Source of the DNA: Camelus dromedarius
Taxonomy: Eukaryota
NCBI RefSeq assembly: GCF_036321535.1
Contig: NC_087439.1
Span: 88,536,001 to 88,600,000 of the forward strand
Direction: 5' to 3'
DNA length: 64,000 nucleotides
The translations under genes were made by a program, and so were the position numbers. Under the pieces are notes generated by a model. That model worked only from the letters and a program-made list of their open reading frames with translations, had not been told where the DNA came from and did no database searches. This document shows positions 17,177 to 19,583 of this stretch, one piece after another; positions within the stretch are counted from its first letter, which is position 1, and each line of letters begins with the position of its first letter.

Positions 17177-17616
17177 GCCTGCCGTTTGACAGCCTGATTA
17201 CAGTCGTTACACACCACCCAGTAGAAATCATCATGGGCTGGACAGAGACCAAATATTGGTATATCTTCATGACAGAGCTCCATGACCGTCCCAGCATCAC
17301 TTTGGGACTGGGCAGGGGCTGGCGCTCCCCGACAGTTGCCATGGCGGCAGTGGTGGCGGCCAAGGTGGATGCGGTGCTGGGGCTGTGGAGGCTGCTGCTG
17401 CTGCTGCTGCCCTGAGGCCAAGGCCTCTGCTCCGTCCGCTGCCTCTGCTCGGAGCGGCTTCCCCTGCCATCATCCGTGGCCTACTCTGACACTTTCCGCT
17501 CCTTTTCTTTGGAGGGCAGGCCAAAAATCCTGACCAGTTCACCAGTGGCTCTTCATCTGCTATTATTATGGAAGCTCTTCTTCTTAATTGTGTTCAGACC
17601 ATAATGTGATGGAAAT
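17177..17616 (-). pseudogene. ATXN7: Spliced, circularly permuted ataxin-7 5' cDNA fragment (circRNA-derived) inside gag
   Basis: Encodes FPSHY, then 5'UTR ..CCTGCCCTCCAAAGAAAAG|GAGCGGAAAG, then SE.AT DD.RG..Q6[61 protein letters not shown]; these match human ATXN7 ([61 protein letters not shown]). Confidence 0.93.
17392..17409 (-). repeat. (CAG)6 polyQ tract of the captured ATXN7 copy
   Basis: GGG (CAG)6 CCT CCA CAG CCC CAG on the minus strand. Confidence 0.9.
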
Positions 17617-19583
17617 GCCTGTGGTTTTTCAGAGTAGGACGGAGTATGATGGCGCCAAATGAGAAGGGCTGTGGTGCTAAAAGGTTGGTAGCAGAGTACG
17701 AGGTGCCTGGGCTGAACAGTCCCATCCTCCCCAACTTGCTGCGGCCCTTGTGTCTCCCGCAGCGGCATGTGGAGGGCCGGTGGTGCTGGTCTCCTGGCTT
17801 GTACTGAGCTGAGCCTCCTTCCTTCCAGCTCAGGCTGGGGGCTGGGGTCTGCCTCTGGGTCCTCGGGTTGGGGAGGTGGTGATACAGAGGGTGGTGGTGT
17901 CTCCACTGGGACTGGAGTTATCAGTACCCTGGGGGCATATGGAGGGGACAGGGACATCTCGTTTTCTGTGTCTCCCTGGAAAATAGGTTTTTCTCTATCT
18001 GTCTTTTTGGCCTGGACCAGCTGAAATGCTAGCTTACATTGTCCAGGTCCATTTGAGCAGAACCAAATCCATGGGGGTAGAGTCTGGGTGATATTCAGCC
18101 AGGAGTCAATGTATGGGAATCGATCGTGGTGGCCTAGAGTTCCAGTGATTGATTATTTGATAGACTACTCACACTGTTGCTAGGTCCAAAATTCCTCTTG
18201 GGGCCACCCAACTCCAAAGGTCAGCCATTCAAGCTCACACAAAGTATGGAGCCTGCCAGGGATCATTTAAACTCCATGGTCTCCTGCGAACCCCGTTTTG
18301 AAATTCTCAATCATGCAGTCCAGAACTGTCAGCTTTGATTTTGAGGCTCCCATTATTATTAGTTGACAGATTTTATGGCCTATAGGTGTGGGTCTACTCC
18401 TGGCACGGAGGACTGTGATCCCAGTATCTCTGTTTTTTCCACTCCTCAAAACGGTGGAGTTCTTAAAAAGCCTGCTGCTTCACTGGGCCTAATATCTGTC
18501 TGCTTGGCTGTAAGTGTTGCCAATGAGTTAAGGTTCCATGATAGGCAGGTGTCCCTGAGGCTCTCCTGGGCCTGGATGAGCTCTAGGGGTCCCTGCACAA
18601 AAACTTTTCTATAGCCTAAATTGACAAAATATGAGGCCGGAAGGCTGGCCGGTGGCAGAATAAATGGACCAAAAGAGGACCTCAAAAGAGGGTTCTAGCT
18701 AGTCCTGGGGTGGCTCCCTCTGGCTCAGGTCTTGTGGTCTTTGTTTTAGACAGAGGAGTAGTATTGAGGCTGGTTTATTAATTGCGACAAGATATTCTGG
18801 GGGACTGGTGACAAGGTCATGTCTGAAACTTTTTAAAATAGTCTCATTTTAGTCCCCAAGTTCACAGGGGTCGTTTACTTACACACTGTTTTATGTCCCT
18901 TTTCCTCCCCGTGTAGCCACCCTGTGCTGGTGTCACAGACAAGACAAGGGAGGGTTTCCGCTGCATCTGTCTGGCTACTCCCCTTGTGGGGACGAAGGTG
19001 CCTCTTAACTTTGGCGGGTCAGTATAAACCGCTGACTCTGATTGATACCCCGAGGGGCCGATACCACCATGAGCTGTATGTGGTCACCACGGAACCACAG
19101 GTTGGGACTCACTCAAACTCCGTAGCAGAATGCCGTGGGGCTACAAACTCGAGCCTGACTGCATGCTTCACAGGCCACACATTCACTCCCACAAACATAC
19201 AGAGGCTATTTGCACATTCCCTTCCCTATCACAGGGGCATCTTTATTCTAACCTAATCTGACCTGATCTCCCATCTGGAATACCATCAGACGGGGAGCCT
19301 GCAGGAGGTGATCAGCCTCCTCTTCTGTCCACTAGGGACAGGACCTGATTTACTCCCTGGGGGTTCCTGCCTTGTCTGGGAAGGCCACCTGGTGAATCTG
19401 TGTGTCCCTCCACTGAGTCTGGCTCTGGTTGCAGCCCAGTCACCTGGGGGTGGGGAGGGTGAGTCACTGTCACGAAAGAGAACCCAGAATACCATTGCGC
19501 GGCGCCACCCTGTTCGTTAGCGGTCTCGTGCCCTGGTCGGCCGGAGCCACCAGTCCAGCGGCTCAAGGGGCCGGCGTAGTTGA

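Follow-up and report, generated by a model that had tools for sequence, protein, structure and literature searches.

A putative one-lap copy of an ATXN7 circular RNA inside the gag gene of a dromedary endogenous retrovirus

How can a piece of a host gene come to lie inside a retroviral gag gene with its exons circularly permuted, between two copies of one short motif and with no loss of gag sequence? The 64,000-nt stretch of dromedary DNA that we analysed (the window) poses this question. Within it, the capsid region of a class I endogenous retrovirus (ERV), now dead, is broken by a 440-nt copy of the ataxin-7 gene (ATXN7).

The interrupted gag gene and its uninterrupted relatives

The host provirus lies on the minus strand. 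Comparison of the LTR pair places the 5' LTR at 19606..19972 and the 3' LTR, whose terminal bases and target-site duplication are missing, at 13647..14011. The two are identical at 331 of 371 aligned bases (K2P 0.119), a distance of about 25–30 million years at a substitution rate of 2–2.5e-9 per site per year. Its paired LTRs and Pfam matches to Gag p30, integrase and a TLV-type env (three of the six frames tested) make it a class I (gamma-like) ERV. The nearest named protein to its gag is from alpaca (P0145, 80% identical to the gag upstream of the insert). The gag frame is broken by stops, and two pieces flank the insert, both on the minus strand: matrix to the start of capsid upstream (17628..18353, with stop codons) and capsid downstream (16955..17176, Pfam Gag_p30). 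The capsid ends near 16955 at a large deletion, after which the sequence resumes in the connection region of pol; env is mostly missing.

Neighbouring repeat units hold two paralogues of the empty integration site, near 30357 and 45473. Compared with these (13647-13635 and 19972-20000), the host provirus has lost its 3' LTR end and target-site duplication, about 9 nt at a 2-nt repeat. The window also carries short Cys/Gly-rich frames (10775-11280, 24140-24660, 26260-26670, 38150-38680, 40270-40680 and 54500-56980) that presumably resemble keratin-associated proteins; they lie in tandem units spaced 14–16 kb and up to 98–99% alike in places. Runs of N, about 143 bases each, are found at 5323-5466 and 62299-62441, far from the insert, and patterns for SINE heads had no match.

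The first-pass annotation had described the insert as bracketed by two 11-mers, and these are indeed present on the minus strand, 440 nt apart and identical at 9 of 11 positions. Of all 11-mers lying within about 35 nt of the two junctions, no other pair matches as well. The left copy (17617..17627) has gag on its 5' side and ATXN7 on its 3' side, and matches both the gag motif of a sister provirus and human ATXN7 at 10 of 11 positions. The right copy (17177..17187) has ATXN7 on its 5' side and gag on its 3' side; at position 6 it carries the G of ATXN7, whereas both uninterrupted gag copies seen have T.

The sister provirus, on the plus strand at 47045-53561, is 72–76% alike the host provirus and serves as comparison site. 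In its gag, the match to the upstream piece runs as far as 49684 and that to the downstream piece begins at 49685, leaving neither gap nor overlap; the motif occurs there once (AAACCTCAGGC, 49673..49683). Alpaca gag proteins likewise continue through the capture site with a single motif. The motif thus belongs to gag itself, and no part of the target was lost. The sister has a 4-nt target-site duplication (AGGT), an LTR K2P of 0.114, LTRs unlike those of the host provirus and, after capsid, a large internal deletion of its own; the two share the start of the primer-binding site, which we take to be that for tRNA-Thr.

In 31 related proteins fetched, the motif was found in 19 (15 EKPQA, 3 DKPQA and 1 DKPLA), followed in none by the ATXN7 tail; the other 12 gave no match to the search pattern. 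The camelid class I gag proteins (alpaca P0145 and P0148) and their pig relatives (the P0146 cluster) read EKPQA-MIDL at the site, as does the host provirus; they are uninterrupted and open, whereas the copy in the window carries stop codons and large deletions besides the insert. A metagenome search with alpaca gag gave seven loci from 50 candidates, one of which (L001) covers the capture site; it is 66–67% alike, uninterrupted there, and matches the motif of human ATXN7 at 9 of 11 positions. The other six were dropped as short matches in the zinc-knuckle region. One database protein (P0147) joins a gag piece of this ERV family straight to the reverse-transcriptase region, which suggests that further copies carry internal deletions or that the annotation was spliced.

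On the ATXN7 side, P0001, whose cluster includes a member named ataxin-7, reads VKPQAFQSHY, and KPQAF is present in 92 of 131 ATXN7-family matches of a HMMER search. Of seven candidates from a word-based search of proteins with the ATXN7 portion, none was confirmed. In the fusion table of PMC4304365, the passage on human exon 5 prints its last 30 nt (ending at chr3:63938159) as TC-AAACCGCAGGC-ATTTC...CATTATG. By eye, the window agrees with this printed sequence at 26 of 28 bases (17627-17600) and at 12 of 13 (17189-17177). The motif forms anticipated for gag and for ATXN7 in the first-pass annotation are thus the ones found, and its statement that gag encodes EKPQA and ATXN7 VKPQA independently agrees with the sister gag and with P0001.

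The gag match ends on both sides of the 11-mer. When all 2,358,840 pairs of 11-mers between the lap and the sister provirus are compared, 30 match at 10 or more positions, so that the microsimilarity at both switch points is above chance (1.3e-5 per pair). A random junction would fall on so good a match about once in 80,000, and the capture was therefore homology-guided. The mere existence of one match of at least 10/11 between lap and provirus is expected; that the junction landed on it is not chance. The emphasis that had been laid on the shared K-P-Q-A peptide was misplaced, since some 30 DNA matches are just as good and each of the two families conserves KPQA on its own. The peptide is an incidental by-product; what matters is the DNA match.

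Both insert junctions are in frame, giving an open frame of 199 residues from gag into ATXN7 (17553-18152, minus strand) and one of 137 residues from ATXN7 into gag (17056-17469, minus strand). Given the stops in upstream gag, these chimeric frames are unlikely to be expressed, and RNA runs, with word shares of 0.06–0.15 for 16900-18000, gave no evidence of expression. With a dead provirus and short chimeric frames, the locus has no evident function.

Exon content of the insert

Read along the minus strand, the insert begins, after the left motif, with the last 17 nt of ATXN7 exon 5 (17600..17616), whose end is exactly that of human exon 5; P0001 residues 150-158 align to 17627-17601. There follows, at 17599..17600, a junction of the back-splice type between the exon 5 donor and an upstream 5'-UTR exon, with the donor exact and the acceptor placed by length only. 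The next 98 nt (17502..17599) we read as exon 2 (5' UTR), which has 99 nt in human, the 5' end again being set by length only. Then come a remnant of exon 3 (17287..17501), with a decayed start codon region, (CAG)6 and one deletion of about 50 nt; the 3' end of exon 4 (17265..17286), where a 94-nt deletion forms the join with exon 3; and the 5' part of exon 5 up to the right motif (17188..17264, P0001 residues 124-149). Expressed in P0001 residues, the part after the 98-nt piece runs 1-11, 11-43 and 61-88 (exon 3), 117-123 and 124-153. The order is a circular permutation (exon 5 tail, 2, 3, 4, exon 5 head) with a non-colinear junction. Exon 5 is complete, 105 nt with the motif counted once, and all blocks map to P0001 1-158 or to the 98-nt piece, with no sequence from outside the circle. 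The uninterrupted (CAG)6 at 17409-17392 preserves, in a dated copy, the polyglutamine repeat of ATXN7; it is shorter than the (CAG)10 listed in human.

Several published human sequences bear on these assignments. Back-splice primers in the supplement passages of PMC13313202 fix the end of exon 4 and the start of exon 3. Window positions 17517-17497 equal an RT-PCR primer for ATXN7, as printed in a passage of PMC5192508, at 20 of 21 bases, and this primer would span exons 2 and 3. The supplement of PMC5865691 gives, in its ATXN7 entries, 99 nt for exon 2 and lists Circ_ATXN7_2-5 (hsa_circ_0002634) as running from the start of exon 2 to 63938159. The same molecule, circATXN7(2,3,4,5).1, is a catalogued back-spliced RNA with reads in human cell lines. 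It has the exon set and the exon 5 end of the insert, and its exon 2 measures 99 nt against 98. It is a living RNA of 609 nt (99+405+105), whereas the camelid insert is decayed DNA of 440 nt and the circle has been seen in human only. About 170 nt are thus missing internally, in two deletions of about 50 and 94 nt, and the earlier claim that the motif was the only piece of the circle outside the insert does not hold. The ends of the 94-nt deletion share a 6/7 microhomology in the human sequence given by the printed primers.

Judged from exon order and lengths, the insert would be one lap of a circle matching catalogued circATXN7(2,3,4,5), with the acceptor side resting on the 98 versus 99 nt. 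As a residual alternative, the 98-nt piece could belong to a lengthened form of exon 3, still within a circle; such a form, circATXN7(L3), is catalogued. Read-through into intron 5 was rejected as its source: its 3' end matches the sequence upstream of exon 3, and P0003 reads a different sequence past the exon. Our search for the first bases of exon 2 or the exon 5-exon 2 junction in print gave nothing usable, and the papers that name primer 4U1024 omit its sequence.

Routes of capture

The first-pass annotation had proposed one crossover joining a circle to a linear molecule. Its geometry stands (one motif in gag, one in ATXN7, two in the product); junction anatomy alone lacks the power to name the enzyme. 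Human ATXN7 has the motif and the insert has no poly(A) tail; absence of the motif, or a tail together with a target-site duplication independent of ATXN7 sequence, would have spoken against that proposal. The weights that we give below to competing mechanisms are matters of judgement, not of computation.

We consider it probable that the insert was captured by retroviral template switching during reverse transcription. A back-spliced ATXN7 circle of exons 2–5 would have accompanied the viral RNA during reverse transcription of the class I ERV. While making the minus strand, reverse transcriptase would have departed from gag at the 11-nt motif, paired with the motif's counterpart in exon 5 of the circle, and copied backwards through exons 5, 4, 3 and 2 and across the back-splice junction. 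On reaching the motif again after one lap, it would have returned to gag there. RNase H may have cut the circle near the entry point, so that the polymerase exhausted the template where copying had begun, the motif being at its 3' end; we infer that this opening of the circle would account for the single lap. The product would then have integrated as the host provirus, insert and provirus decaying together afterwards, and the internal deletions of the insert could stem from further short jumps or from later DNA events. The co-packaging of the circle, the enzyme and a return forced by RNase H after exactly one lap are the conjectural parts of this scheme, and to the full version, in which a retroviral reverse transcriptase went once, in nature, round a host circRNA packaged with it and returned at the RNase H-opened entry point, we give about even chances.

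The crossover geometry, the catalogued circle, the presence of both LTRs and the lack of poly(A) speak for retroviral switching, and we count the microhomology at the ends of the 94-nt deletion in its favour. So do the published route of LTR retrocopies, which is switching guided by microsimilarity (PMC5131818), and the position of mouse circRFWD2 copies in MMERVK10C-int (PMC4897178). On the other side, only one copy of the insert is known, and a hexamer resembling an L1 endonuclease site sits 2 nt before the left motif. Also, the LTR retrocopies of Drosophila, as described in passages of PMC5131818, all replaced part of the element and none interrupted it. Our search for a second insert-bearing provirus found none. 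The left-junction pattern had no match in metagenome contigs, and the gag piece confirmed none of 35 candidates in viral contigs; both are weak tests for mammalian DNA.

The ages of insert and provirus bear on the choice between routes. At the amino-acid level the insert differs from P0001 at 11 of 65 residues, a coarse measure with a 95% interval of 9–28% and a non-camel ATXN7 protein as reference. The gag flanks differ from alpaca P0145 at 14 of 108 (Fisher P=0.51) and pol at 13 of 99. Simulation on the insert codons gave 8.0 expected changes (3–13) at half the LTR distance and 4.3 (1–9) at a quarter; with 11 observed, half the distance fits, a quarter or less is disfavoured, and the insert is therefore not much younger than the provirus. 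It is possible that CpG-rich ATXN7 decays faster than gag, inflating the count for the insert, and one of the 11 differences is possibly ancestral, as a printed human primer reads E-V-M there. As far as such residue counts go, the similar decay of insert and provirus would favour retroviral template switching over a later L1 insertion.

Such an L1 insertion, primed by homology and aimed at the already integrated provirus, seems to us rather unlikely. L1 would have nicked the A run by the motif, and the freed strand would have paired with the motif on a poly(A)-less circle. After one copied lap, the second strand would have joined at the regenerated motif. The two 11-mers would then be a target-site duplication that is also ATXN7 sequence, because an RNA without poly(A) needs homology for priming. 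The earlier dismissal of L1 on account of the homologous insert ends was too hasty. The endonuclease-like site (TG|AAAA) 2 nt before the left motif has the fitting orientation; with the L1 endonuclease consensus taken as nine hexamers, a hexamer so placed occurs at 2% of host provirus positions and at 36 of the 141 that start with AAA. A length of 11 nt is within the usual range of L1 target-site duplications. Given the LTR divergence, an aged duplication could carry two mismatches in 11 (P=0.34), and we have rejected these as proof against one. In passages of PMC5131818, L1 is the dominant means by which retroposition occurs in humans and mice. However, the right junction has ATXN7 bases and lacks the two extra A's of the nick, so that 2 nt would have to be trimmed, and the ATXN7-type G at position 6 of the right copy differs from the T of uninterrupted gag. 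If the gag of the host provirus itself had G there, a single CpG decay would explain the left copy and the two models would be indistinguishable. A poly(A) tail has been reported as required for L1 retrotransposition (cited in a passage of PMC4897178), and the longest A run in the insert is four, unlike the tail of an L1 processed pseudogene. Finally, landing in ERV coding sequence soon after the integration of that ERV would be a coincidence.

Improbable, in our view, is capture at the DNA level, in which a linear or circular cDNA of the circle was joined into a break of the provirus by microhomology repair or a single crossover. The product would be the same, and the later small deletion at the 2-nt repeat of the 3' LTR end indicates that such repair acted in the host provirus. 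However, for this route a full-lap cDNA must have been free and the break must have fallen precisely on the site, and the similar ages of insert and provirus are left unexplained; 11 nt are also short for homologous recombination in mammals. Still harder to credit is a linear template, a trans-spliced or tandemly duplicated ATXN7 transcript carrying exons 2–5 twice, which was entered at its second motif and left at the first. It would give an identical product, and non-colinear junctions can arise by other routes (PMC4897178), but a matching circle is already catalogued with reads in human cell lines, and the records consulted for other purposes contained no linear repeat form.

An assembly artefact or a chance resemblance can be practically discounted, as the insert has pseudogene-type decay and makes up 40% of 16900-18000, leaving flanks that alone could supply about 60% of the words, and 15 of the 24 listed runs (8 studies, 2 organisms) hold 62–79% of the sampled words of this interval, shares that count words rather than junction-spanning reads and include one run that is possibly the source sample.

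Relation to known retrocopies

Pseudogenes derived from circRNAs have been described, with 33 high-confidence copies of circRFWD2 in LTR-rich flanks and a mechanism that was called mysterious (PMC4897178). The mouse copies lie in MMERVK10C-int (PMC4897178). Like the insert, they lack poly(A), have a non-colinear junction at a back-splice site already known and are flanked by internal ERV sequence; gene, lineage and ERV class differ, and 33 copies there stand against one known here. Compared with their description in passages of PMC4897178, the insert adds a full lap, ends that share one motif, and a site for comparison that is uninterrupted. The main text and supplement passages of PMC4897178 contain no junction analysis for the circRFWD2 copies, whose junctions may already show the same pattern.

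LTR retrocopies, in passages of Tan et al. 2016 (PMC5131818, which includes HERV-K/FAM8A1 as cited there), arise by template switching that depends on microsimilarity. Like the insert, they have host exons inside an element with both LTRs, short similarity at the junctions and no L1 tail. As described there, they have two different microsimilarities, a replaced part of the element and linear mRNA templates, whereas in the insert a single motif is used for both switches and no part of the element is replaced, the sister gag being continuous at 49684/49685. The word 'circular' does not occur in the main text of PMC5131818, and neither it nor Rfwd2 occurs in the supplements other than file 1. The insert works like a member of the LTR-mediated retrocopy class, as a variant in geometry.

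A passage in a 2025 review (PMC12747553) adds no mechanism for circRNA pseudogenes. Our literature search, mostly of open-access text, with subscription papers and figures largely outside its scope, found no ERV described as carrying a full-lap circRNA insert with a single motif doubled, and none with an ATXN7 insert. The parts, circRNA pseudogenes and LTR retroposition, are known; to judge from this search, the crossover geometry is new.

The locus keeps both junctions, together with an uninterrupted sister gag and a matching catalogued circle, and so offers a concrete signature: a full lap, one motif doubled and no loss of target. This signature can be searched for in ERVs, the mouse circRFWD2 copies included, and tested with a purified enzyme, and it bears on how circRNAs become pseudogenes, a question left open by PMC4897178. 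If retroviral template switching round a circle is the true explanation, circles would be the one kind of host RNA that retroviruses can take up with no loss of their own sequence. It would also mean that, some tens of millions of years ago, the germ line or early embryo of camelids already produced circATXN7(2-5), and the locus would date one specific circRNA isoform.
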